DNA of 64,000 nt from assembly GCF_046119375.1 (NCBI RefSeq), contig NW_027362769.1, positions 374,852,001 through 374,916,000 of the forward strand, in the 5' to 3' direction. Position 1 is the first letter of the stretch. Every line of letters begins with the position of its first letter. The translations under genes and the position numbers were made by a program. Below the pieces are notes generated by a model. It was given only the letters and a program-made list of their open reading frames with translations, was not told where the DNA came from and did not search any database. Positions 2,787-64,000 of this stretch are shown piece by piece. This DNA comes from Phyllobates terribilis. Lineage: Eukaryota.

Positions 2787-5700
2787 TTACTCTGCTTCCT
2801 CCGTGCTAGCAGAGCCCTGTGGGCCTTCCAGGGCTTCACTAAGCAGCTGTATCTGTCTGCTCATCTGGGAGGAGAGACTCTCGATCCTCCGCGCCTTCTG
2901 GCGCAGCTTGTGTAACTGTTTGTTGTAGGTCTCTTTTAGTTCCATGTAGCAATTGTGCTCGTCTCGGTTTGCAGGGGTCAGCAGCGCTCCGCACCCCATG
3001 TGACACGTCTCGCTCCAATACTCGCAGCTTTGGCTGTGGTCAACTATGTCTTTCCTCATCACCTGGGCAGGACATCCAGCATTGGCGCAGGGCACCAGTC
3101 CGAAACCGCATGACTCTGCGTGCTCCTCGCTCCTCAGCAGAGGGAAGAGGGCTGGGCAGCCATTCTGCTCGTTAGGACACTGATCATCAAGACAGATACA
3201 TTATGTTATAGACCTTAAAGTAGATTTATCACTAGGTATAAAATATAGATTTTTTTTTTTTTACCTGCTGTAAATGACGCGCCCCCTGGGCCGTGGGGCA
3301 CCCGGAGCCGGGCCGGTAGATGCTGGGGGTTGTAGTCACTGTGGCGGTGACCCGGTCCCTGACCCAGGGTGGTCAATCCAAGGGGATGTATAGGTTTTTA
3401 TAATGTCTGACTACGCCACCTGTGGAGTGCGGCTAAAGGGGGGGCCACCACTGCGGAACAGTCCTCTGAAGCTGGTGGTTGCGCAGCAATGATGGTATAA
3501 CTCCCCACAGGAAGAGTTAGCTTCAGGGCAGTGTGTGAGGATGATGGTGGTTGTGCTGAGCGTTATAGTGCAGTGAGGGATGGCGCAGCAAGTAACACAG
3601 AGACAAGATAGTGCAGTCCCAGGGGCTTTACTCACAGTTATTGCAATCCAGATTATAGAGCTCAATGTAATTGCCCACGTCATTCTGTGCTTACTCAGTG
3701 AGGGGCTCAGTCCACCCTCAGGTATTTCCAGAGCACTCAGCAGGACCCCTTTCTGTGTGCCTTCCTCAGCCGTCTTCCTGCGCTGGCTCTCACCCTCCTG
3801 CCCTGCGCCTCACAGTCAGTGTCCCAAGCCGGTGGCCTCGGGTCTTGGCAGGCGACCTGCAGTCCCCTGGGCCCTATGTGGCCACCTTTTTGGCGATTGT
3901 TAACTGTGGTAGGGGGCAGCTGCACCCTGAAAGTACAGCCACCTCCAGTTGCTAGTTGGACTTAAAGTATCCGTGCTAGTTAAGGGGCCGGTCCCCTCTG
4001 CGGCTTGATCCTTCCAATGTCTTGTAGATTCGGGCGGCCTCCAGTACTGCCTGTACCCCTAGGATCCCCTCGTTCCTTCCTCCTGGAGCCTTTCCTGCTC
4101 CCCTTCTCTTCTCTTCCCAGACTTGGGCCTCACTGGCCAGGCCCGCCTCTGGAGCAGAGCTCATGCAGAGCCTCTGCTCCTGGCGCTCCTCCTCCTCTGA
4201 CTGAACACTGAACTAAGATGGTTCCCTATTTTATACAGCTTCCTGTCAAGTGCTCCCAGGATCTACTTCCTCCACCCCATCCACTACATGGTTCCCCCTC
4301 TCTAGGTTGTTCCCCCCACTCCAGCCAGAGACCAGGGACTGTGCTCTCCCATAGAAGCAATCTCGCCCTGTCCCTCGGAAATGTGTAGTGAATGCAGTGT
4401 TAGGGTCCTGAGCTGTACTCCTTCCTTACCTGAGAGTGAGGTACCACACCTCTGGATGAGATGCAATACCTCTGTGGTGACTGAACCCTCAGGGGCACCA
4501 CATAAATGCCACCGTTCTCCTGAATATGGCGATGTTTTTCTTTTCTTCCTGCGCCTCTCCGTTCCTGAGATAAAGTCCTTTCTGCCCTGTGTATCTATTA
4601 TTTTAGCCAACTGGGTGTGGTTCTTCAGAACAAACCCACAGAGAAGAGTTGGGATCATACAGGTAAGAAGCCGCCATATCTCAAGAATGGAGAGGCGCAT
4701 GAACAAAAGAAAAACATCGCCGGATTCAGGAGAACAGCGGCATTTACACCAAATTAAAAAAAAAATACATATTCATGGCAAGTGATAGGTCCCGCTTAAA
4801 GTGGTTGCACAAAATTCAAGAACAAAACATGACTGCTTTCCTTCTCTTAAAGACGCACCACACCTGTTTGAAGGTTGTGTGCGGTATTGCAGTCTCTGAA
4901 AGTTCACTGGAACGGAGCCACAATACCAGACGCAATCCATGAACAGGTGGCGTTGTTTAAGGAAGAAAGCAGACATGCTTTGTGTTTCATTTCACCACCA
5001 TTTTGTAGAACTCTGCCATTAGTAACTAGAATTACCCTTGCTTACACAAAATCAGAAATTCCAACTGCTGGCACAGGTGCATGGTTCATTAAAAGGGCTA
5101 TTTCAGACATTTTGGGCCAGATTCATTATTGAATTTACACTTTTGTCCAGATTTTGTTTTTTTATTTTTGCCCATTTCTAATTGTTGCCTTTTTTTAAGA
5201 TCTATTTTATATGTATTTGCCTATTTTTTATTGTGTTTGCCATTGTGGGAAAGTTTTGGGGTTTCCAAATGTTTTTAGTTTTTTTGGCTGATCACAATTT
5301 TTTTTGCGAAGATGTACACCACTCCCCACGAAGTGATATTTTCATGTACGTCTTTTACATACGACATCTTCAGTTATGGAAGGGACACAATCACTCTCAT
5401 TAAATGATGAAGAAATCTATGGCCGCCTTCTATCCTTTACCTTGACTTGCAGACTGTTGATTTTCCTCTTCAGCTTATGCATCTGTACATAAAGTTTACC
5501 CCTCACTTCGGTTCTACAGCACGGGCAGGTCTGCTGTCTGGGAAAAGGAAGTGCAGTCAAACAAGGATTCATGGAGATGACCCCCATTGTACAGTCTGTG
5601 AGAACCATCAACAAGCTGCTGTTGATGGAGCCGATTTTCAAGTTTCCATCACAGGAAGCTCCAACAAGCTGGAGTTAACGGAGCTGGTATTTTCCACCTA

Positions 5701-7813
5701 TTTAAACCTTTAAATCAGTACTAATATTTTATGTTTGGGCTGTGGGTAGAAAAAAAGAAAAAAAAAAGTATTGAACATATGAAGAAAGAGGTACACAAAG
5801 CCCTGGAAACTCATCTCACCAGCTGAAATTATCAGTAATTAGAACGCAATCCTGCCACTTAATGACAAATTATCTCAGTGGGTTCAACTGATGGCCAATA
5901 AAAAGGTGTCTCATTACCAAGGTGCCACACAAGAAACCTCTCATGCTGGGTAAAACAAGTGAGCTGTCTCAAGACCTTCGCAACCTTATTGTTGCAAAAC
6001 ATACTGATGGCATTGGTTACAGAGGGACTTCTAAACTACTAAAGGTTCCAGTGAGCACCGTTGGGGCCATAACTCCGAAGTGAAAAGAACATAATTTCAG
6101 GATAAACCAGTCACAACCAGGTGCTACCCAGAAGATTTCAGACAGAGGAGTGAAAAGAATGATCAAGAGTTGTCCAAGAGCCAAGTACCAACTGTGGTCA
6201 GCTACAAAAAGCCCTGGAATCAGCAGATACAATTGTTTCAAAGAAAAAAGTGATGCATTCAACCTCCATGGCCTGTATGCCCGCTCCCCACGCAAGCTCC
6301 GTGGCCTGTATGCCCGCTCCCCACGCAAGCTCCGTGGCCTGTATGCCCGCTCCCCACGCAAGCTCCGTGGCCTGTATGCCCGCTCCCCACGCAAGCTCCG
6401 TGGCCTGTATGCCCGCTCCCCACGCAACCTCCGTGGCCTGTATGCCCGCTCACCACGCAACCTCCGTGGCCTGTATGCCCGCTCACCATGCAACCTCCGT
6501 GGCCTGTATGCACGCTCACCACGCCACCTCCATGGCCTGTATGCACGCTCACCACGCCACCTCCATGGCCTGTATGCACACTCACCATGCAACCTCCATG
6601 GCCTGTATGCACACTCACCACACAAGACTCCATTGCTGAGCAAAAAGCATGTTCAAAGTATGTTGAACAACATTTAGACAAGCCTGTGAAATACGGAGAG
6701 ACTATAGTCTGGTCAGAACTCTTTGGATGCCATAATACACACCAAAAGGCACTGCATATCACCCCAAAAACACCATACCAGCAAAGAAGTTTGGAGGTGG
6801 ATACATCATGGTGTTAAAATGTAATAATAAAAAAAAAAAAAAAATGTATCGAAGGAACTAAAAGCTCAGAGTTCATAGAAGGAGCCCACGGGCTCTTCAG
6901 GATGTGAAGAGTGTTTGTATGGAAGAATGGGCTAAAAATCACACCTGAGCAATGCCTGCAACTAGTTTCCCCATACAGGAGGAGTCTTGACGCTTCATCA
7001 CCAACAAAGGCTTTTGTACGAAGTATTAACTACATTTCAGTAAGTGTTCAATACTATTTCCTTGTGAAATTTCTCATTACTACACATAATTTATGGACAT
7101 CTATGGATGATTTCTTTACCCGTGTGGAGTAGATGGGTTGCTACTGACATCTGGTGAGAACTTCATGTCAACAGCACCTTTAGAAATAGGTTTACTTAGA
7201 AAATTAGTGACAAGTTCAATACTTATTTCAACCGCTGTATAAGAAAATAGAGCAGAGCTAACCAGTGGTCAGGGGTGGCATTGCAGACCTTCTCCACAGT
7301 GCATGGATGCAAGTTTGGGAAATTGCACATTTTCCGGTCACGCTTGTCCTAGTCATGGACCTCCTCACTCAAGCTGACTGATCTTACATTCTTATGACTT
7401 CTCTAACACTAGTGCATCCCATTAACCCGCTGCAGCCTTGATCATACAGAACACACCACACTGATTTTCTCACCTTTTTAGCCACTGTAAAATGCATTTT
7501 CGGCAGAAGATGTGCCCACAGGAGATCATGACGGGGCACCTGAGCACACCATGGCAGATAGAGCACAGTAGGTCGTCATCTGGATTTTCCGTAAATATAT
7601 CTAGATCGTATCCACCTCCCTGAAAGTATGGAAGCACCAGAGGCATAAGGTCATTAATAAAAGGTCAGGGGTACTGGGCAGCTATGGACACAGCATCAGA
7701 GCTACCCTGAGACCTTACAGCTATGATCATGTCCTGGCTGCCGCCGTAAAAGCACAAGTACCCACTGGAGACCTTGAATGTACCCTGGCACACGTCACTC
7801 CAGTACATACCAT
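2787..7813 (-). CDS. RNF151: RING finger protein 151 (RING + TRAF-type Zn fingers), 4 coding exons, 212 aa
   Basis: Exons 7813-7811 (ATG|gtatgt), 7619-7474 (GGGYDLDIF..CSICHGVLRCPVMISCGHIFCRKCILQWLK), 5537-5441 (QQTCPCCRTEV..LQVK), 3179-2787 (CPNEQNGC..HNCYMELK..TAA). All GT-AG, phases consistent, 639 nt total. ATG-only first exon is the least certain. Confidence 0.92.
3275..4502 (-). mobile_element. solo LTR of the same family in RNF151 intron 3
   Basis: Minus strand TGTGGTGCCCC..GGGGGCGCGTCA, TSD TAAA on both sides, 1228 bp, clearly similar to the 32845 copy. Confidence 0.9.
4515..4736. repeat. fold-back MITE-like inverted repeat
   Basis: GTTCTCCTGAAT..GCGCCTCTCC../..GGAGAGGCGC..ATTCAGGAGAAC. 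Confidence 0.65.
5820..7237 (+). mobile_element. decayed, internally deleted Tc1 element
   Basis: GKTSELSQDLRNLIVAKH N-terminal remnant, EEWAKITPEQC C-terminal remnant, right TIR ending AACCGCTG|TA at 7237. Left end approximate. Confidence 0.8.
6270..6622. repeat. 33-bp minisatellite, about 11 units
   Basis: GGCCTGTATGCCCGCTCCCCACGCAAGCTCCGT, inside the Tc1 remnant. Confidence 0.95.
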
Positions 7814-17506: not shown

Positions 17507-24486
<6,980 letters not shown>

Positions 24487-32520: not shown

Positions 32521-33796
32521 GGTGGGGAGAGCAAATGGGGGGTGGGGGAGACTTAATGATGATAAATAGAGGGTGGGGTTGAGGAGAACAAGACATGACA
32601 TACTGAATTGGGGCAGAGGGTCCATGTAAATATAATGATTCAGGGGAGCAGGAGGTACAGAGTAGGGGGCGTTGATGCAGGAGTGTGACTGGTAATAAAT
32701 TGGGGGAAAGAGTACTAATTCATTTATATATTTATTAGGTGGGTAAAGTGGCTATTTACCGTTAGTGTGGGCACCGTGGTGGATTACAATTTATATTTGG
32801 AATGGTGGGTTGCATAATGACTGATTATATATTAATGGTGGGTGTGTGGCGCCCCTGCGGGTTCAGTCGCCGCAGAGGTACTGCATCTCACCCAGAGGTG
32901 TGGTATCCCACTCTCAGGTAAGGATAGAGTGCTGCTTGGGACCCTAACACCTGCATCCAACACACTCCACTTCAGTAGGGCAGGGCGAGATTGCTCCTAC
33001 GGGAGATCACAGTCCCTGGTCCCTGGCTGGAGTGGAGGGGAACCTAGTGAGAAGGAACCATGTAGTGGGTGTGGGTGGAGGATGTAGATCAGGGGAGCAC
33101 TGGTGAGGGAGTGATATAAAAGGGGGAACCATCTTGAAAGTTTAGTTCAGTTCAGTCAGTGAGAGAGAGAGAGTGGTGTTGGAGGAGGAAAGTGAGGGGT
33201 GCAGAGGCTCTGCGGGAGCTCTGATCCAGAGCGGGCCTGAGGAGAGGCCCAGGACTGAAGGAAGAGGAGAGGGAGCAGGAGAAAGGCTCCAGGAACAGAA
33301 GGGATCCCAGGGGTACGGGAAGTGCTGGAGGCCACCCATACGCCCGAATCTGCCAGGCGGTGGAGGGATCGAGCCGCAGAGGGGACCGGCCCCTAAACTA
33401 GTGGAGAACTACAAGGCTCAGCTAGGAACCGGAGGCTGCTGTACTTACAAGGTGCAGTGGCCACATCTGCAACTATATCGCCGAAAAGGTGGCCACATAG
33501 GGTCCAGGGGACTGCAGGTCGCCGACAAGACCCGAGGCTACCGGATTGGGACACTGGTTGCGAGGCGCAGGGCAGGAGGGCGAGAGCCAGCGCAGGAAGA
33601 CGACTGGTGAAGGCACATAGAAAGGAGTACTGTCAGGCACTCTTGAATTACCTGAGGGATTGCTGAACCCCTGCCTGGTTAACACAGCACGACGTGGGAG
33701 GTTGTAGTCCGGAACCTGTAACCTGAGGAACTTAACAACTGTGAGTAAACTCGGAAGACTGCACCCCACTGTCTCTGTGATTATTGTCTGCGCCAT

Positions 33797-36700
33797 TGTA
33801 GCGCCCCGAGGGCTCGGCCGCTACAGGGGTATTGCACCTCAGACCAGAGGTGTGATATTCCACTCTCGGGTAAGGATGGAGTATGGACCAGGGCTCAGTT
33901 AGCTGCATGCAGCACACACACCCCATTTCTCAGGGACAGCTCAACGGTGCTCCCACTAGACATAAGTGCAGGCACGACCGACCATGTCCCTGCTGGAGTG
34001 GGGAGGGAGGGGTGGAACACCCAGTGCTGTAGGGGCAGATAGGGGGCGGTTCCTGAGTGTAGGAAGAAGCCCATTGGTTGCTGGTCACCTGGGCTCATGG
34101 CTAGAGGGAGGTATAAAAGGTGGGCACCATCTTAGTTCTGGGTCAGTTCAGCCAGAGGAGAAGACAGGGAGTAGAGGCTCTGTAGGAGCTCTACTCCAGG
34201 AGGGCCTAGTGAAGAGGCCGAGGAGGAGGTGAAGGGGAGCTGAGATTCTGGCTCATCTCAGCTCCAAGAGAACGGAACAAGAAAGGAACAGAAAGGAACA
34301 GAGAAAGAGAAGGAGAGACAGAGAAACAGAAGGGCTCAGGAACAAGAAGGTGGAAGGGACCCTAAGAACCCACGAGAATCCAGGGTGAAGGGTCAGGCAG
34401 ATTAAGGGTACCGGATCCCAAGTTGGTGGAGGAGAAACAACCCTCAGCCAAAGACCGGTCGTCGTGATCATCTATTGGTGCGACACCTCATCAAACCTGC
34501 TAGGAAGGCACCATATAGGACAGCGGAGGACGGGGCCCACGTTTAACCGCACAAGTCCGCGGCAGCTGGACAAAAGTGGGCCACTGGTGAGGCAGGCCAG
34601 AGAAAGGATTAAAGGGGGTCCTGTGCCATGCTCCTGAACTGCCTGGGAGTTGACCGAGCCCCACACCTGGTGGACGCAGCACGGCTCGGGCGGTCACTAT
34701 CTGTGCACAAGTGACCTGGACTACCTGAACTGTGAGTAAAAGACATTGGGCTGCAGTACGTTGTCTGTGTGCTCTTTCGCGCCTCCAGCACTTTCAGCAC
34801 CGGGACCCGCACTACCATCCCTCCCAACATCCACTACACTGCCCTGGGGCCGCACTCTTCCCGTGGGGAGTCACATCACCTCAGCTGCACCCATCATCAG
34901 CCCCAGCGGACTGCCTTGCAGCGGCGGTTCCTAATAACCGCAATCCACGGGTGGCGTAGTCGGACATTATCTGAAGTACGTAGCAGACTACCAATGGCCT
35001 GACCACCCTGAGCCGCGGGACCGGGCCGCCACTACTACTACCCCCAACGTCTCCCTATCGCCCGGATCCGCGTGCCCCACGGCCCAGGGGGCGAGTCAGC
35101 TTTGGCGTAGTCGGCAGGATCGTGACCAACCTGCCACAAATGGGTATTGCGTGCCTGAAGAGAATTACACATGTACCTTAAAAAGAAGTTTCCCGCCGTC
35201 CGGAGTCGTTTCCCGCCATCCGGAGCCGATTCCCGCCATCAGACGCCATCTTGGACCGTTTCCCGCCATCTTCATCCGTCTTTCCCGCCCTGGCAGAGCG
35301 GACGCCATTATGGGCGCACCAAAAGACAGCAGGAAGCCACCTCCCATCGTGGGCCAGGTCCCAGAATGGCGCCAAAGAAGAAGCCCGCCCCCACCAGCCA
35401 TGAATGCAGCAGTGGAGATGTCCATCAACATGGGGGGGCTGCCCCTGAAAGTGATTGTCAGCAGAATGCCCCAGGACCACCCCCTCTGGGGGCGGAAAGA
35501 GAAGAAAACTGTGGGGCAGGGCGCGGTCTGGATCAGTCTGGCCAGGCCGCACCCGGAGATGGAGGGGGAAATCAGTGCCGGTACCCTGGTAAAGGGCCTG
35601 CTGCAAGCAACACCACCATGCAGCCTCACCGAGCTGTTAGCCCATCTCCCCAAGGAGGATCCCGAATACACACGGGCGGCGCTGGAAGAACTGGACCGGA
35701 GGATGGTCCGGGCGCAGCAAGAAGTGATCGCCGGATGGAAGGAGGAAGTGGCCCGGCGGGCTGTGATCCTGCAGCCGAAGGCGCCAGCAACAAGCAGCGC
35801 ACCAGCCAGTGAGGGCCGAGCGGAGGCCGAGGACGACGCCGTGGAGAAGGCCGCGACAGCAGAGGCAGGTAACGGAGACGCCCCTGCACCGAATCCTAGG
35901 GCCGCCGACCTGCCCCTGCACCCCGTCGCGGAGCCCCACGCACCGGGACCCGCTGTTGACACCGTGCCCTCACCGCCATCAACCAGCCCCCAGGCCGTCG
36001 ACGCTGCCAGCGAGCCCCGCCCCACGCCGTGCCCTCTGACCCCGGGCGTGCTCAGCCAACCGCCACCGCAGGCCCGGTCGCAAGGCCTAGCGCCCCCGTA
36101 CGCCGCCTGTCGACGGTCGTACTGCCGCCAACAGCTGGAGGTGTTCGAGAGGGAGCACCGGGAGCGGCGCATGAAACAGGAGAAGCTGCAGGCCCAAAGT
36201 GCGGAGCAGAAGATGAAAGCCCGACGAGATCCCCGAGCTGCCCGCGGTCCCGGAGTCACCGGGACTGTCGTGAAATTTCACATGGAACATGGCTGCGGTT
36301 TCATCCGAGACCCCGAGACCATCAGTGACGTGTTTGTGACAAGGAGAGATGTGGAGAGTCACCTACCGAAAGGCCATCGTGGGCGGGATTTATTCCCAGG
36401 CGACGTGGTGTCTTACACCCGACACCAAGGCGTGAAGGGGTGGTACGCCCTACACGTCCGCCGAGTAGTAGAGGAGGAGGAACAGCACTACTCGGACGCT
36501 GAGTACCAGGAGGGCCCAGACGGGCCTGAAGATCATGAGGAAGAAGGAGCATCAGGAGGACACCGTTACCAGTGAACGGTAAAGTGGCATTGTAAATAGT
36601 TACCCGTAAGGGTGCAAAAGAACTGTGTGGGACTGTTTCAAATTGAGTGTGGTCCCCGTTGGGACTGATATAGGACTGTATGAAAATTATCCCCTAAGTA

Positions 36701-38475
36701 ACCTGGCTGAGGACTGAGAACAGCCACCCCTCTTCCCCTAACAGGCTGAGGACTGTGAGCAGCCATTCCCCTATCCCCACCGGCCGAGGACTGGGAACGG
36801 CCAATCCCTTGTATATAGTTGCGCTTCTTAAAGCGCCCCCTACTGGTTTTATAAAAAGAACCGCAACGTCTACCTCAAAGTTAAAATGGACTGTTGCACC
36901 TTTAAAAAGAAAGAACACCTGGTCGCAAGTTGCACCGCGGCCATGAATCAAGAACCCAAGAATGTGCTTTAGTTAAAAATGTTTTAGATTTTATATGCTG
37001 CTAAATAGTAATGAAAAAGTTTTCTATAATGTCTAGTGAAAAGAAAAGTGTGTCCCATAAAGGGAGTTGAACCGTATTGTCTGTTTCTAATGTGAAAAGT
37101 TTTAAAAAGTTTTGCATGTCCTTTAAATAACTGTTTTTGCTCTTTTCCAGCCCGAGGACGTGCTGTGCTTTACCAGGGGGGAATGTAGCGCCCCGAGGGC
37201 TCGGCCGCTACAGGGGTATTGCACCTCAGACCAGAGGTGTGATATTCCACTCTCGGGTAAGGATGGAGTATGGACCAGGGCTCAGTTAGCTGCATGCAGC
37301 ACACACACCCCATTTCTCAGGGACAGCTCAACGGTGCTCCCACTAGACATAAGTGCAGGCACGACCGACCATGTCCCTGCTGGAGTGGGGAGGGAGGGGT
37401 GGAACACCCAGTGCTGTAGGGGCAGATAGGGGGCGGTTCCTGAGTGTAGGAAGGAGCCCATTGGTTGCTGGTCACCTGGGCTCATGGCTAGAGGGAGGTA
37501 TAAAAGGTGGGCACCATCTTAGTTCTGGGTCAGTTCAGCCAGAGGAGAAGACAGGGAGTAGAGGCTCTGTAGGAGCTCTACTCCAGGAGGGCCTAGTGAA
37601 GAGGCCGAGGAGGAGGTGAAGGGGAGCTGAGATTCTGGCTCATCTCAGCTCCAAGAGAACGGAACAAGAAAGGAACAGAGAAAGAGAAGGAGAGACAGAG
37701 AAACAGAAGGGCTCAGGAACAAGAAGGTGGAAGGGACCCTAAGAACCCACGAGAATCCAGGGTGAAGGGTCAGGCAGATTAAGGGTACCGGATCCCAAGT
37801 TGGTGGAGGAGAAACAACCCTCAGCCAAAGACCGGTCGTCGTGATCATCTATTGGTGCGACACCTCATCAAACCTGCTAGGAAGGCACCATATAGGACAG
37901 CGGAGGACGGGGCCCACGTTTAACCGCACAAGTCCGCGGCAGCTGGACAAAAGTGGGCCACTGGTGAGGCAGGCCAGAGAGAGGATTAAAGGGGGTCCTG
38001 TGCCATGCTCCTGAACTGCCTGGGAGTTGACCGAGCCCCACACCTGGTGGACGCAGCACGGCTCGGGCGGTCACTATCTGTGCACAAGTGACCTGGACTA
38101 CCTGAACTGTGAGTAAAAGACATTGGACTGCAGTACGTTGTCTGTGTGCTCTTTCGCGCCTCCAGCACTTTCAGCACCGGGACCCACACTACCATCCCTC
38201 CCAACATCCACTACACTGCCCTGGGGCCGCACTCTTCCCATGGGGAGTCACATCACCTCAGCTGCACCCATCATCAGCCCCAGCGGACTGCCTTACAGCG
38301 GCGGTTCCTAATAACCGCAATCCACGGGTGGCGTAGTCGGACATTATCTGAAGTACGTAGCAGACTACCAATGGCCTGACCACCCTGAGCCGCGGGACAG
38401 GGCCGCCACTACTACTACCCCCAACGTCTCCCTATCACCCGGATCCGCGTGCCCCACGGCCCAGGGGGCGAGTCA
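33797..38475 (+). mobile_element. non-autonomous LTR retroelement (Gypsy-like by inference) with a single cold-shock-domain ORF
   Basis: LTRs 33797-35098 and 37184-38475 (TG..CA; 8 substitutions and one 10-bp indel seen by eye), TSD CCAT, PBS TGGCGTAGTCGGCAGGAT 35103-35120 (complement of tRNA-Ser 3' end), PPT AGGGGGGAA 37175-37183, LTR TATAAAA 34112. Confidence 0.95.
35310..36575 (+). CDS. 421-aa LTR-element protein with C-terminal Y-box-like cold-shock domain
   Basis: Strong-Kozak ATG at 35310 within the 35151-36575 ORF. Pro/Ala-rich linker, charged helical segment, CSD about 36255-36464 (GTVVKF..HGCGFI..DVFVT..GDVVSY..GVKGWYALHV), acidic tail. No CCHC, RT, RNase H or integrase motifs. Confidence 0.8.
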   Translation: MGAPKDSRKPPPIVGQVPEWRQRRSPPPPAMNAAVEMSINMGGLPLKVIVSRMPQDHPLWGRKEKKTVGQGAVWISLARPHPEMEGEISAGTLVKGLLQATPPCSLTELLAHLPKEDPEYTRAALEELDRRMVRAQQEVIAGWKEEVARRAVILQPKAPATSSAPASEGRAEAEDDAVEKAATAEAGNGDAPAPNPRAADLPLHPVAEPHAPGPAVDTVPSPPSTSPQAVDAASEPRPTPCPLTPGVLSQPPPQARSQGLAPPYAACRRSYCRQQLEVFEREHRERRMKQEKLQAQSAEQKMKARRDPRAARGPGVTGTVVKFHMEHGCGFIRDPETISDVFVTRRDVESHLPKGHRGRDLFPGDVVSYTRHQGVKGWYALHVRRVVEEEEQHYSDAEYQEGPDGPEDHEEEGASGGHRYQ

Positions 38476-38949
38476 CCATCACCCCTGCACTACAACGCCC
38501 AGCATCACCTATAACATCTACACTGCCCTGGAGCTAAGCTCTACCTGTGGAGAGCCACACCAGCTTTGCTGCATTTACATCAGCTCCAGAGGACCTGCTC
38601 CGCAGCGGCGGCTCCCTTTAGCCGCATACCACAGGTGGCGTCACGAACTTTGTACATAAATCCCCTGTAAATATCTCCTTTTGTTGACCGCCCTCGGTCA
38701 CGGACCGGGTCACTGCCACTGTGACATCTCCCCTAGTAATGACCGGCCCGGCACCGAGTACCCCACGGCCCAGGGGGCGCGTCAGGTGCACGTCTGTATT
38801 CAGCTGCGTAGTGTAGAAGTTGGGGAATGTGCTCTAGATAACTGTGTGTTATGTTAGGCAGAGACGAGTCCTGGCTGGAAGAAGTGACGGTGGTCTGTGC
38901 TGGATTTAGGAGAAAAGCAAAGATGAAGGACTTCACTTAGACATATCAG

Positions 38950-56740: not shown

Positions 56741-58119
56741 AGCCATTTTTATAGGGGTCGTCACCTATTTATTCATAACTCTAACAATGACATATTGTTA
56801 CTTTGTCTATATTGGACCAATATTAATCAAAATTGACATCCAGGAGTCTAGGAAAAACGGGTGACAACTTCCATAACAGCTTTAATGGCTGCTACTTCGC
56901 ATTCTTAGAAGAAGAAACGGTTGTAACAAGAGGAGAATAATTTGGGCCTCTTGTATTATATTCACTGGGGAGTTTTTGATATCAGGTGGAAATGCCCTTT
57001 AAAGGTGTTTTTTGGTGTTTTAAGAAAATAGGCCACAAGGAGGAAGAAGTAGCCCATACTTACCGTTTTATTCTCCCTTGCCTATTTGGTGGTCTCTGTA
57101 GGCCTTGGCTTACTTCCTTCAGTGTTGACATGCCATGTGACCGCTGCAGCCAATCACTGGCAGACGGAACGCAGAGACCATCAGGGACCACCAGAGCAGC
57201 AGTGCTAAATGATAAGCATAGGATACTTCTTTATCTTATACCAAGCTAATGTGGAAGGTTTCCAAAAAATAAAGGAAAACCCCTTTAAGTCGGAAAGTTA
57301 TCCTAGTGTTGAAAACAAATCCAACTCTGCTACGTCTGAGCCACATTCCGGACTTTGCTCCATAGACACGACCTGTTTTTGCTGTGTCTTCTGCACATGT
57401 TGCTATATTGGGCAGCCTCATGTGACAGGTGCGCCCCCTCCCAGCGGAGGTCATGGTGTAAAGCTTATTCCAGCACTTCTCTTTAATTATCTGTTTCCAG
57501 CTGAATCAGGCGGTTCCTCAGTTTTGCGCCTTGTTCTCAGCCTGACAGAGCGACGCTTCCAGCCTCCTCACAGTCTAACTACTCCTCCCAACATACACGG
57601 GTGACAATGCCGCCCCCGTCCTGAATTCATTGCTGGCGTGTCTACTTTAACTCTTAAAGGGTTCCATACCCCTAATGAATGTTTTACATAACAATTTTTA
57701 AAACGTGTGGGGGAAATGGAAGTTTTGGGCCCTTTTTTATACAGCAATTCTAGCAAAAATATAATGTACAAGGGAGCTGCGGAAACCTCTGGGGTGACAG
57801 GAGGCGGATTTGTAGCAGAAATTTTCATACCTGGATTTGAGCAAACTCCATGAATGGGTCAGTCGCAGAACTTTTTACAACAAGTCTGACACATGTGACT
57901 CCAGCCTGAGTACTTTGTGGGTGATTTTGCTGTCTGAGGTCCAATCGCAGGTCACTGTCATGTTGCCCTTTTTGCTGTAATTTTCATGTCGTTGCACACA
58001 AATGCTGAAGTTTAGCTGCAGTTTTTGTGAAAACTCCAACAAGTGTATTAGATGTAGCCCACAATGGACTGTACTAGGTAACTGCATTAGAAATAATTTA
58101 ACCCAACTGAACATCAGTG

Positions 58120-61100
58120 GGATTGTGGAGCTGTGCACCAGTGTATTATGTATCTGCAGGATTGTGGAGCTGTGCACCAGTTTATTATGTATGTGAAAGA
58201 TTGTGGAGCTGTGCACCAGTGTATTATGTATCAGCAGGATTGTGGAGCTGTGCACCAGTGTATTATGTATCAGCAGGATTGTGGAGCTGTGCACCAGTGT
58301 ATTATGTATCAGCAGGATTGTGGAGCTGTGCACCAGTGTATTATGTATCAGCAGGATTGTGGAGCTGTGCACCAGTGTATTATGTATCAGCAGGATTGTG
58401 GAGCTGTGCACCAGTGTATTGTGTATCAGCAGGATTGTGGAGCTCTGCACCAGTGTATTATGTATCAGCAGGATTGTGGAGCTGTGCACCAGTGTATTGT
58501 GTATCAGCAGGAATGTGGAGCTGTGCACCAGTGTATTATGTATCTGCAGGATTGTGGAGCTGTGCACCAGTGTATTATGTATCTGCAGGATTGTGGAGCT
58601 GTACACCAGTGTATTATGTATCAGCAGGATTGTGGAGCTGTGCACCAGTGTATTGTGTATCAGCAGGATTGTGGAGCTGTGCACCAGTGTATTATGTATC
58701 AGCAGGATTGTGGAGCTGCGCACCAGTGTATTATGTATCTGCAGGATTGTGGAGCAGTGCACCAGTGTATTATGTATCTGCAGGATTGCGGAGCAGTGCA
58801 CCAGTGTATTATGTATGTGCAGGATTGTAGAGCTGTGCACCAGTGTATTATGTACTGTATGTGAAAGATTGTGGAGCTGTGCACCAGTGAATTATGTATC
58901 AGCAGGATTGTGGAGCTGTGCACCACTGTATTATGTATGTGAAGGATTGTGGAGCAGTGCACCAGTGTATTATGTATGTGCAGGATTGTAGAGTTGTGCA
59001 CCAGTGTATTATGTATGTGCAGGATTGTGGAGCTGTGCACCAGTGTATTATGTATGTGAAAGATTGTGGAGCTGTGCACCAGTGTATTATGTATCAGCAG
59101 GATTGTGGAGCTGTGCACCAGAGAATTATGTATGTGAAGGGTTGAGGAGCTGTGCACCAGTGTATTATGTATGTGAAAGATTGTGGAGCTGTGCACCAGT
59201 GTATTATGTATCAGCAGGATTGTGGAGCTGTGCACCAGAGAATTATGTATGTGAAGGGTTGTGGAGCTGTGTGCACCAGTGTATTATGTATCAGCAGGAC
59301 TGTGGAGCTGTGCACCAGTGAATTATGTATCAGCAGGATAGTGGAGCTGTGCACCAGTGTATTGTGTATCAGCAGGATTGTGGAGCTGTGTGCACCAGTG
59401 TATTATGTATTTGCAGGATTGTGGAGCTGTGCACCAGTGTATTGTGTATCAGCAGGATTGTGGAGCTGTGTGCACCAGAGTATTATGTATGTGCAGGATT
59501 GTAGAGCTGTGCACCAGTGTATTATGTATGTGCAGGATTGTGGAGCTGTGCACCAGAGTATTATGTATGTGAAGGATTGTGGAGCTGTGCACCAGTGCAT
59601 TATGTATGTGCAGAATTGTGGAGCTGTACACCAGTGTATTATGTATCAGCAGGATTGTGGAGCTGTGCACCAGTGTATTCTGTATCAGCAGGATTGTGTA
59701 GCTGTGCACCAGAGTATTATGTATGTGAAGGGTTGTGGAGCTGTGCACCAGTGTATTATGTATCAGCAGGACTGTGGAGCTGTGCACCAGTGAATTATGT
59801 ATCAGCAGGATTGTGGAGCTGTGCACCAGAGTATTATGTATCTGCAGGATTGTGGAGCTGTGCACCAGTGTATTATGTATGTGCAGGATTGTAGAGCTGT
59901 GCACCAGTGTATTATGTATGTGCAGGATTGTGGAGCTGTACACCAGTGTATTATGTATGTGAAAGATTGTGGAGCTGTGCACCAGTGTATTGTGTATCAG
60001 CAGGATTGTGGAGCTGTGCACCAGTGTATTATGTATCTGCAGGATTGTGGAGCTGTGCACCAGTGTATTATGTATGTGCAGGATTGTGGAGCTGTGCACC
60101 AGTGTATTATGTATGTGCAGGATTGTGGAGCTGTACACCAGTGTATTATGTATCAGCAGGATTGTGGAGCTGTGCACCAGTGTATTCTGTATCTGCAGGA
60201 TTGTGTAGCTGTGCACCAGAGTATTATGTATGTGAAGGATTGTGGAGCTGTGCACCAGTGTATTATGTATCAGCAGGATTGTGGAGCTGTGCACCAGTGT
60301 ATTGAGTATCAGCAGGATTGTGTAGCTGTGCACCAGAGTATTATGTATGTGAAGGGTTGTGGAGCTGTGCACCAGTGTATTATGTATCAGCAGGATTGTG
60401 GAGCTGTGCACCAGTGTATTGTGTATCAGCAGGATTGTGTAGCTGTGCACCAGAGTATTATGTATGTGAAGGATTGTGGAGCTGTGCACCAGTGTATTAT
60501 GTATCAGCAGGACTGTGGAGCTGTGCACCAGTGTATTATGTATCAGCAGAATTGTGGAGCTGTGCACCAGTGAATTATGTATCAGCAGGATTGTGGAGCT
60601 GTGCACCAGTGTATTATGTATCAGCAGGATTGTGGAGCTGTGTGCACCAGTGTATTATGTATCAGCAGGATTGTGGAGCTGTGCACCAGTGTATTATGTA
60701 TCAGCAGAATTGTGGACCTGTGCACCAGTGAATTATGTATCAGCAGGATTGTGGAGCTGTGCACCAGTGTATTATGTATCAGCAGGACTGTGGAGCTGTG
60801 CACCAGTGTATTATGTATCAGCAGGATTGTGGATCTGTGTGCACCAGTGTATTATGTATCAGCAGGATTGTGGAGCTGTGCACCAGTGTATTGTGTATCA
60901 GCAGGATTGTGTAGCTGTTCACCAGAGTATTATGTATGTGAAGGATTGTGTAGCTGTGCACCAGTGTATTATGTATCAGCAGGATTGTGGAGCTGTGCAC
61001 CAGTGTATTATGTATCAGTAGAATTGTGGAGCTGTGCACCAGTGTATTATGTATCAGCAGAATTGTGGAGCTGTGCACCAGTGTACTATGTATGTGAAGG

Positions 61101-64000
61101 ATTGTCGAGCTGTGCACCAGTGAATTATGTATCAGCAGGATTGTGGAGATGTGCACCAGTGAATTATGTATCAGCAGGATTGTGGAGCTGTGCACCAGTG
61201 AATTATGTATCAGCAGGATTGTGGTGCTGTACACCAGTGTATTATGTATCAGCAGAATTGTGGAGCTGTGCACCAGTGTATTATGTATCAGCAGGATTGT
61301 GGAGCTGTGCACCAGTGTATTGTGTATCAGCAGGATTGTGGAGCTGTGCACCAGTGTATTATGTATCTGCAGGATTGTGGAGCTGTGCACCAGTGTATTA
61401 TGTATCTGCAGGATTGTGGAGCTGTACACCAGTGTATTATGTATCAGCAGGATTGTGGAGCTGTGCACCAGTGTATTGTGTATCAGCAGGATTGTGGAGC
61501 TGTGCACCAGTGTATTATGTATCAGCAGGATTGTGGAGCTGTGCACCAGTGTATTATGTATCTGCAGGATTGTGGAGCAGTGCACAAGTGTATTATGTAT
61601 CTGCAGGATTGCGGAGCAGTGCACCAGTGTATTATGTATGTGCAGGATTGTAGAGCTGTGCACCAGTGTATTATGTACTGTATGTGAAAGATTGTGGAGC
61701 TGTGCACCAGTGAATTATGTATCAGCAGGATTGTGGAGCTGTGCACCAGTGTATTATGTATGTGAAGGATTGTGGAGCAGTGCACTAGTGTATTATGTAT
61801 GTGCAGGATTGTAGAGTTGTGCACCAGTGTATTATGTATGTGCAGGATTGTGGAGCTGTGCACCAGTGTATTATGTATGTGAAAGATTGTGGAGCTGTGC
61901 ACCAGTGTATTATGTATCAGCAGGATTGTGGAACTGTGCACCAGAGAATTATGTATGTGAAGGGTTGAGGAGCTGTGCACCAGTGTATTATGTATGTGAA
62001 AGATTGTGGAGCTGTGCACCAGTGTATTATGTATCAGCAGGATTGTGGAGCTGTGCACCAGAGAATTATGTATGTGAAGGGTTGTGGAGCTGTGTGCACC
62101 AGTGTATTATGTATCAGCAGGACTGTGGAGCTGTGCACCAGTGAATTATGTATCAGCAGGATAGTGGAGCTGTGCACCAGTGTATTGTGTATCAGCAGGA
62201 TTGTGGAGCTGTGTGCACCAGTGTATTATGTATTTGCAGGATTGTGGAGCTGTGCACCAGAGTATTATGTATGTGCAGGATTGTAGAGCTGTGCACCAGT
62301 GTATTATGTATGTGCAGGATTGTGGAGCTGTACACCAGTGAATTATGTATCAGCAGGATTGTGGAGCTGTGCACCAGTGAATTATGTATCAGCAGGATTG
62401 TGGAGCTGTGCACCATTGTATTATGTATGTGCAGGATTGTGGAGCTGTGCACCAGTGTATTATGTATGTGCAGGATTGTGGAGCTGTGCACCAGTGTATT
62501 ATGTATGTGCAGGATTGTGGAGCTGTACACCAGTGTATTATGTATCTGCAGGATTGTGTAGCTGTGCACCAGAGTATTATGTATGTGAAGGATTGTGGAG
62601 CTGTGCACCAGTGTATTATGTATGTGCAGAATTGTGGAGCTGTACACCAGTGTATTATGTATCAGCAGGATTGTGGAGCTGTGCACCAGTGTATTCTGTA
62701 TCAGCAGGATTGTGGAGCTGTGCACCAGAGTATTATGTATGTGAAGGGTTGTGGAGCTGTGCACCAGTGTATTATGTATCAGCAGGACTGTGGAGCTGTG
62801 CACCAGTGAATAATGTATCAGCAGGATTGTGGAGCTGTGCACCAGAGTATTATGTATGTGCAGGATTGTAGAGCTGTGCACCAGTGTATTATGTATGTGC
62901 AGGATTGTGGAGCTGTACACCAGTGTATTATGTATGTGAAAGATTGTGGAGCTGTGCACCAGTGTATTGTGTATCAGCAGGATTGTGGAGCTGTGCACCA
63001 GTGTATTATGTATCTGCAGGATTGTGGAGCTGTGCACCAGTGTATTATGTATGTGCAGGATTGTGGACCTGTGCACCAGTGTATTATGTATGTGCAGGAT
63101 TGTGGAGCTGTACACCAGTGTATTATGTATCAGCAGGATTGTGGAGCTGTGCATCAGTGTATTCTGTATCTGCAGGATTGTGTAGCTGTGCACCAGAGTA
63201 TTATGTATGTGAAGGATTGTGGAGCTGTGCACCAGTGTATTATGTATCAGCAGGATTGTGGAGCTGTGCACCAGTGTATTGTGTATCAGCAGGATTGTGT
63301 AGCTGTGCACCAGAGTATTATGTATGTGAAGGGTTGTGGAGCTGTGCACCAGTGTATTATGTATCAGCAGGATTGTGGAGCTGTGCACCAGTGTATTGTG
63401 TATCAGCAGGATTGTGTAGCTGTGCACCAGAGTATTATGTATGTGAAGGATTGTGGAGCTGTGCACCAGTGTATTATGTATCAGTAGGACTGTGGAGCTG
63501 TGCACCAGTGTATTATGTATCAGCAGAATTGTGGAGCTGTGCACCAGTGTATTATGTATCAGCAGAATTGTGGAGCTGTGCACCAGTGAATTATGTATCA
63601 GCAGGATTGTGGAGCTGTGCACCAGTGTATTATGTATCAGCAGGATTGTGGAGCTGTGTGCACCAGTGTATTATGTATCAGCAGGATTGTGGAACTGTGC
63701 ACCAGTGTATTATGTATCAGCAGAATTGTGGACCTGTGCACCAGTGAATTATGTATCAGCAGGATTGTGGAGCTGTGCACCAGTGTATTATGTATCAGCA
63801 GGACTGTGGAGCTGTGCACCAGTGTATTATGTATCAGCAGGATTGTGGATCTGTGTGCACCAGTGTATTATGTATCAGCAGGATTGTGGAGCTGTGCACC
63901 AGTGTATTGTGTATCAGCAGGATTGTGCAGCTGTGCACCAGAGTATTATGTATGTGAAGGATTGTTTAGCTGTGCACCAGTGTATTATGTATCAGCAGGA
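58120..64000. repeat. 39-bp satellite array running off the window end, with about 2.8-3.0-kb higher-order repeat
   Basis: GGATTGTGGAGCTGTGCACCAGTGTATTATGTATCAGCA; rare variants recur at offsets of 2823 and 3016 bp. Confidence 0.98.

Follow-up and report, generated by a model that had tools for sequence, protein, structure and literature searches.

Candidate U5 contact sites for both acceptor-stem strands of the primer tRNA-Ser in a Ty3/gypsy-type retrotransposon group of Phyllobates terribilis

Why should an LTR carry, within its own sequence, a second motif resembling a primer binding site (PBS)? The question is raised by a 64,000-nucleotide stretch of the Phyllobates terribilis genome (contig NW_027362769.1, positions 374,852,001 to 374,916,000; hereafter "the window"), all four LTRs of which exhibit such a motif. 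Retroelements rarely change their primer tRNA, and contacts of the tRNA outside the PBS are thought to be the cause. The evidence that such contacts limit primer change comes mostly from laboratory mutants of HIV and Ty elements.

The elements of the window and their family

Three insertions with such LTRs are found in the window, the host genome of which amounts to 10.6 Gb. A young, non-autonomous element of Ty3/gypsy type occupies position 33797 to 38475 on the plus strand, flanked by the 4-bp duplication CCAT. Its 5' LTR (33797 to 35098) and 3' LTR (37184 to 38475) are identical at 1284 of 1292 aligned bases. An 18-nt PBS complementary to tRNA-Ser(AGA/TGA) (position 35103 to 35120) follows the 5' LTR after a 4-nt spacer, and a polypurine tract (37176 to 37183) immediately precedes the 3' LTR; all these features are on the plus strand. 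Structural hallmarks of Ty3/gypsy LTR retrotransposons are thus present: TG...CA LTRs, PBS, polypurine tract and target-site duplication. The young element interrupts an older solo LTR of its own group (plus strand, 32845 to 38784, now in two parts, 32845-33796 and 38476-38784; duplication GGTG). A second solo LTR lies on the minus strand (3275 to 4502; duplication TTTA). The 4-bp duplication sits at the ordinary GTCA end in all three insertions. Across the window and the loci L001-L030, such duplications are frequently TATA or a similar sequence. Two other repeats were also noted in the window: about 6 kb of a tandemly repeated 39-nt unit (57976 to 64000), and an inverted repeat of 473 bp (19146 to 20091) that is near-perfect and has no spacer.

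The young element lacks pol. Its open frame (34938 to 36575, plus strand, 545 aa from stop to stop) exhibits a C-terminal cold-shock domain (Pfam CSD), which is also encoded by another non-autonomous element of the group (L211, position 228 to 1724); in contrast, one autonomous relative exhibits a CCHC knuckle. The CSD protein of the non-autonomous elements might assist tRNA annealing as an RNA chaperone. Two relatives with the same U5 (L253 and L215) do contain pol, in the order reverse transcriptase (RT, 402-561), RNase H (633-764) and integrase (901-1069), and the best PDB match of their pol is Ty3 Gag-Pol (E-value = 3.9 × 10-99). Because of this domain order and this best match, we assign the group to Ty3/gypsy. 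Membership in the Gmr1-like gypsy group, where the integrase precedes RT, was considered and rejected, since the integrase comes after RT in the relatives. A dUTPase-like domain is present 5' of RT in one of them (L215, position 4793 to 6553).

Two U5 sites and their covariation with the PBS

The PBS-like motif, hereafter the internal site, is located 144-149 nt before the 3' end of all four LTRs, in agreement with the preliminary description of the window, which had placed it at about 145 nt. It reads TGGCGTAGTCGG in both LTRs of the young element (34952 to 34963, a 12-nt complement of the 3' end of tRNA-Ser(AGA/TGA), and 38329 to 38340), TGGCGTCACGAAC in the older solo LTR (38636 to 38648, plus strand, a 13-nt complement of the 3' end of tRNA-Ser(CGA), hence the CGA state), and TGGCGTAGTC in the second solo LTR (3418 to 3409, minus strand). 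As also described earlier, CCACA-GG precedes it in the two solo LTRs; in both LTRs of the young element the preceding sequence is CCACG-GG. From the positions of a TATA motif (34112) and an AGTAAA motif (34735), we infer that the internal site, and the box described below, lie in U5 and would therefore be present only at the 5' end of the element RNA.

A genome-wide search with the internal-site context returned 147,407 matches, compared with 405 for the reversed pattern; the internal site is therefore not a chance occurrence. Among the first 100 context matches listed, a non-random sample from the first 5.7 Mb of one contig, 73 are of AGA type, 27 of CGA type and none of another state. A large GCGCAGTC class was considered as a third state and rejected: in the loci read, it mostly corresponds to one solo LTR with a fixed flank carried inside a larger repeat (L256-L278), probably present in thousands of copies.

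Both states complement the 3' ends of tRNA-Ser genes that ARAGORN calls in this genome (L061-L065 and L072 for the AGA/TGA state, L093 for the CGA state). The earlier claim of a match to real isoacceptors is thus borne out, over 11-14 nt only, compared with 18 nt for the PBS. The match is at least 87% at positions 1 to 11 and fades after positions 12-14, the length of the acceptor arm; at positions 15-16 the identity to the tRNA is 0.00-0.03, and the 18-nt match of a PBS is absent. Accordingly, the internal site covers the acceptor arm only. It stays fixed while the adjoining bases diverge freely. With regard to the genes themselves, the tRNA-Ser(CGA) form priming the CGA lineages was matched by a single gene (L093, at G000:C2:193078438), AGA/TGA tRNA-Ser genes are many, and another Ser form occurs as a tandem array on C11.

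A second segment, the box, is found about 75-80 nt downstream of the internal site and is complementary to nucleotides 1-11 of the tRNA. In the 5' LTR of the young element (35028 to 35038, plus strand; 38405 to 38415 in the 3' LTR) it complements these nucleotides of tRNA-Ser(AGA/TGA) at 10 of 11 positions. The box of the older solo LTR, in the CGA state (38715 to 38725, plus strand), pairs with nucleotides 1-11 of tRNA-Ser(CGA) with one G-U pair, and that of the second solo LTR (3345 to 3332, minus strand) is in the AGA state with a 3-nt bulge. In the wider group, CGA lineages exhibit the form GCCACCGTGAC; the main AGA lineage exhibits GCCAC and GACTAC with a 2-3 nt bulge, or the one-mismatch form GCCACTACTAC; and a second AGA lineage exhibits a 12-nt form in register, with G-U pairs.

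The cognate tRNA 5' end is the better partner of the box in 114 of 129 U5 tails (70/81 AGA, 44/48 CGA), a sample obtained from 146 sites after thinning by shared flank. In the main AGA lineage the cognate tRNA is only slightly ahead (median -16.7, compared with -14.6), and the non-cognate tRNA is the better partner in 11 of the 81 AGA tails. When 15 segments along the tRNA were compared with shuffled tails, only nucleotides 1-11 stood out clearly (median z of -2.6 and -5.0, from 16 copies in each case); the middle of the tRNA and its D arm gave no signal in the U5 tails. Folding of 49 chosen aligned copies predicts a long conserved hairpin (35006 to 35089, plus strand) presenting the box in its loop. 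A small predicted hairpin just 5' of the internal site (34924 to 34941, plus strand; columns 5-22 of the same alignment) exhibits compensatory changes. The predicted cost of opening the box is 1.5-4.1 kcal/mol, compared with -15 to -21 for the duplex with the tRNA.

Does the state of these sites follow the primer actually used? The true PBSs of the group occur in the same two states, AGA/TGA and CGA. Loci were collected by a long PBS, a variant PBS, the internal context or near-identical LTRs, and form a non-random sample; L218-L243 stand outside the pair counts. Among 105 distinct PBS-like matches with an LTR-end-like context, 86 have a readable internal site in the 5' LTR, the other 19 being five tRNA genes, two members of a different LTR family, a single duplicated tail, and 11 copies in which the context is deleted or mutated. 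The internal site has the state of its own PBS in 84 of the 86 (48 AGA/AGA and 36 CGA/CGA), and no cross between AGA and CGA was found among these 86 5' LTRs. The remaining two (L304 and L309) carry a PBS from a third tRNA-Ser above an internal site of CGA type. Given this concordance and the lack of any cross, the internal state belongs to the lineage and is not rewritten at each round. Sequence variants of the PBS do not reappear in the internal site (position 6, 0.73 versus 0.98). Roughly half of the first 100 matches listed for variant PBSs share one T-to-C change, located at position 6 of the AGA-type PBS.

A phylogenetic analysis was carried out on the 67 copies left from the 86 after thinning at 93% likeness (248 columns, with the internal site excluded and the box masked). 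The resulting tree, which is unrooted and has some long branches, requires two state changes (2-3 in the bootstrap replicates), and an earlier tree of 131 rows requires two as well. A single origin of the AGA state, with all AGA copies in one clade, is rejected (p-AU = 0.0175), in a test made with the first tree already known. The box was rebuilt differently in the two AGA lineages (bulged or one-mismatch versus 12 nt in register), which supports separate switches. Taken together, these comparisons indicate that the internal site, the box and the PBS switched jointly at least twice. The preliminary description had seen an isoacceptor switch between copies; the tree and the 84 concordant pairs place the difference between lineages instead. 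At the level of sequence, the extra segments both complement the primer tRNA and covary with primer identity, as in multipartite primer binding sites, and the feature appears to represent a naturally covarying form of multipartite primer binding.

Some PBSs in the group reach 30-55 nt into the tRNA (L217, 1150-1199; L216, 1595-1650; L041; L045). That of L216 extends through the anticodon, and such long PBSs show that these tRNAs are copied as primers. In L217, two tandem LTRs are joined by a 49-nt antisense tRNA piece.

Possible roles of the internal site and the box

We see about an even chance that the two U5 sites, complementary to both acceptor-stem strands of their own primer tRNA-Ser, act as a capture-and-open clamp that passes the tRNA to the true PBS. 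The free CCA end of the tRNA would start pairing at the internal site, which complements the CCA and the 3' acceptor strand, and the tRNA 5' strand thus freed would be held by the box. The 18-nt PBS would then take over the tRNA 3' end, while the box would keep the stem from re-closing. The two sites follow each other in an order that allows a single tRNA to occupy both with no crossing of pairs. In predicted co-folds, the internal site is occupied by the 3' end of the cognate tRNA in 77 of 84 cases, compared with 3 of 84 for the other tRNA, and both tRNA ends are paired with U5 in 66 of 84; in some co-folds (L002, L058) the partner of the 5' strand is a U5 stretch other than the box. The internal site is not predicted to be more open than the true PBS (its 5-nt toehold is the more open one in 36 of 84), which weakens the reason for a landing step. 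L304 and L309, for which a third tRNA-Ser served as primer although their internal site does not match it, indicate that the match is not strictly needed in every round. Somewhat below even we place a further model, in which the U5 of this vertebrate gypsy lineage would be a two-armed RNA chaperone: the duplicate 3'-end site and the loop-displayed 5'-strand box would pull the acceptor stem apart, and a natural change of primer would have been possible only with a joint rewriting of the three sites, which would have happened at least twice.

The sites might instead keep a second tRNA stably bound, be it to package it, to link dimers or to slow strong-stop synthesis, with nothing being passed to the PBS. 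The same covariation with the PBS is expected in this case, and the site order and the 66 co-folds with both ends on U5 fit it as well; in Ty1, sites outside the PBS are described as serving tRNA packaging (PMC5371799, PMC4974528). However, the free 3' end of a held tRNA could prime, yet no integrated product ending at the internal site was found in the 101 loci described below. We regard this possibility as unlikely.

These loci bear first on the proposal, made in the preliminary description, that CCACA represents a normal but cryptic LTR end, at which insertions with their own target-site duplication might be found. All loci with CCACR not followed by GG (86) or with a break after CCA (15) were read; these searches depend on an unchanged upstream context, so that copies altered there escape them, as do ends followed by G. 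Of the 86, 39 are double substitutions and 43 are deletions that leave the tail in place; one is a join to a full PBS, and three are tail-less. Of these last three, the flanks of L164 are unlike, L187 is a fragment, and L157 is ambiguous, its flanks CAAA and CACA lying inside a CA-rich repeat. Ten of the 15 loci broken after CCA retain the tail and five do not, a duplication at the break being present in none. Thus, a clean target-site duplication at the internal end is seen in none of the 101 loci, with L157 ambiguous; together with a match short of 18 nt, this speaks against a functional LTR end plus PBS. The exact sequence CCACAGG is itself present in only 39 of the 84 paired copies, others having CCACG or CAACG.

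A back-up priming site, or an acceptor for plus-strand transfer, occasionally rewritten from a tRNA copy, is a different matter, and three cases could be read in its favour. In L216, an 18-nt copy of the PBS replaces the internal site in register and the U5 tail is duplicated; in L100/L214 and L341/L344, the tail is missing in the 5' LTR only, which is joined to the true spacer and PBS. The repeat takes part in rare rearrangements in L216, L214 and L344. However, these are three loci among about 147,000 copies, and recombination between short repeats could explain them as well. Besides the lack of clean duplications, double changes of the GG pair, considered as a scar of priming, show no excess (54 versus 90 at a control CC pair), the PBS variants at position 6 are unmirrored, and the box is left unexplained. 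Back-up use therefore seems improbable to us. The earlier suggestion that isoacceptor tracking implies use is retained in part: the site is probably functional, while the junction counts speak against routine priming.

There is also little chance that the sites form an intramolecular RNA switch in which the partner of the box is the internal site or the PBS, both of which have seven bases in common with the tRNA 5' end. Such pairing would covary too, and some AGA subfamilies carry a further complement of the internal site nearby. In 24 leaders, however, the box is predicted to be mostly free (median pairing 0.0-0.02 with the internal site and 0.0 with the PBS), and it follows the tRNA's own order of nucleotides 1-11, which is absent from the internal site and the PBS. 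If the internal site served 3' tRNA fragments, or repressors that bind the PBS, as a decoy or target, it would likewise follow the PBS state, and 3' fragments of 17-22 nt are reported to repress LTR elements through the PBS (PMC12853362). Yet the internal match covers only 11-14 nt, at the 3' end of such fragments, an extra target in cis should add repression, and a box matching the tRNA 5' end has no place in this explanation, which we find very improbable.

It is scarcely credible that the sites are a non-functional relic of a captured LTR end, PBS and leader, or of a whole antisense tRNA: CCACA-GG-TGG does resemble an LTR end plus PBS, and tRNA read-through copies of about 49-55 nt follow the true PBSs in L216 and L217, but the tail is unlike the element's own leader (median z 0.01, 1 of 66 above 3), contrary to the capture of an ancestral U5-PBS-leader proposed earlier, the D arm and the rest of a whole antisense tRNA give no signal in the segment comparison above, and the site, fixed among diverging neighbours, switched with the primer twice. 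The internal site may have originated by capture, while its present uselessness is argued against.

Comparison with known primer tRNA contacts

The clamp reading can be set beside several systems. Contacts of the tRNA beyond the PBS are well documented for Ty1, Ty3, gypsy and HIV (PMC5371799, PMC4974528, PMC1635307, PMC5066621), and PBSs have also been treated in Candida (PMC4139406). We found no description in the open-access literature of a duplicate PBS accompanied by a 5'-strand box in U5, although it may sit unremarked in repeat libraries; the present sites point to a tRNA contact type of this kind, combining the 5' acceptor strand with a duplicate 3'-end site. This one genome amounts to a natural experiment, in which about 147,000 copies and two primer states come together with at least two joint switches of three sites.

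PBS-like sequences are reported to be bound by tRNA 3' fragments (PMC12853362). Targets of such fragments share with the internal site a PBS-like sequence, but they are host-side repression sites without a 5'-strand box. In Ty1 and Ty3, the extra sites are described as pairing with the T and D arms, the tRNA 5' end being left free (PMC5371799, PMC4974528). The likeness lies in an element RNA that pairs with its primer tRNA outside the PBS, as is predicted here; the difference lies in the partner, the T and D arms in the accounts of Ty1 and Ty3, and here the 5' acceptor strand together with a repeated 3'-end match, both within U5. Drosophila gypsy exhibits a second site for tRNA-Lys, 11 nt long and near the RNA 3' end, pairing with the anticodon and T stems (PMC1635307). 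It likewise is a second 11-nt tRNA site in a gypsy element; it lies near the 3' end and is not a copy of the PBS, whereas the present group carries a PBS-like site in U5.

A further parallel, in terms of primer change, concerns HIV-1, where the primer activation signal (PAS) pairs with the T arm of the tRNA. The PAS is 8 nt long and upstream of the PBS, and a switch of primer needs both to be changed together (PMC5066621). The likeness is an upstream site that must change with the PBS; the reported HIV-1 switch was made in the laboratory, whereas the switches seen here are natural ones, involving two extra sites.
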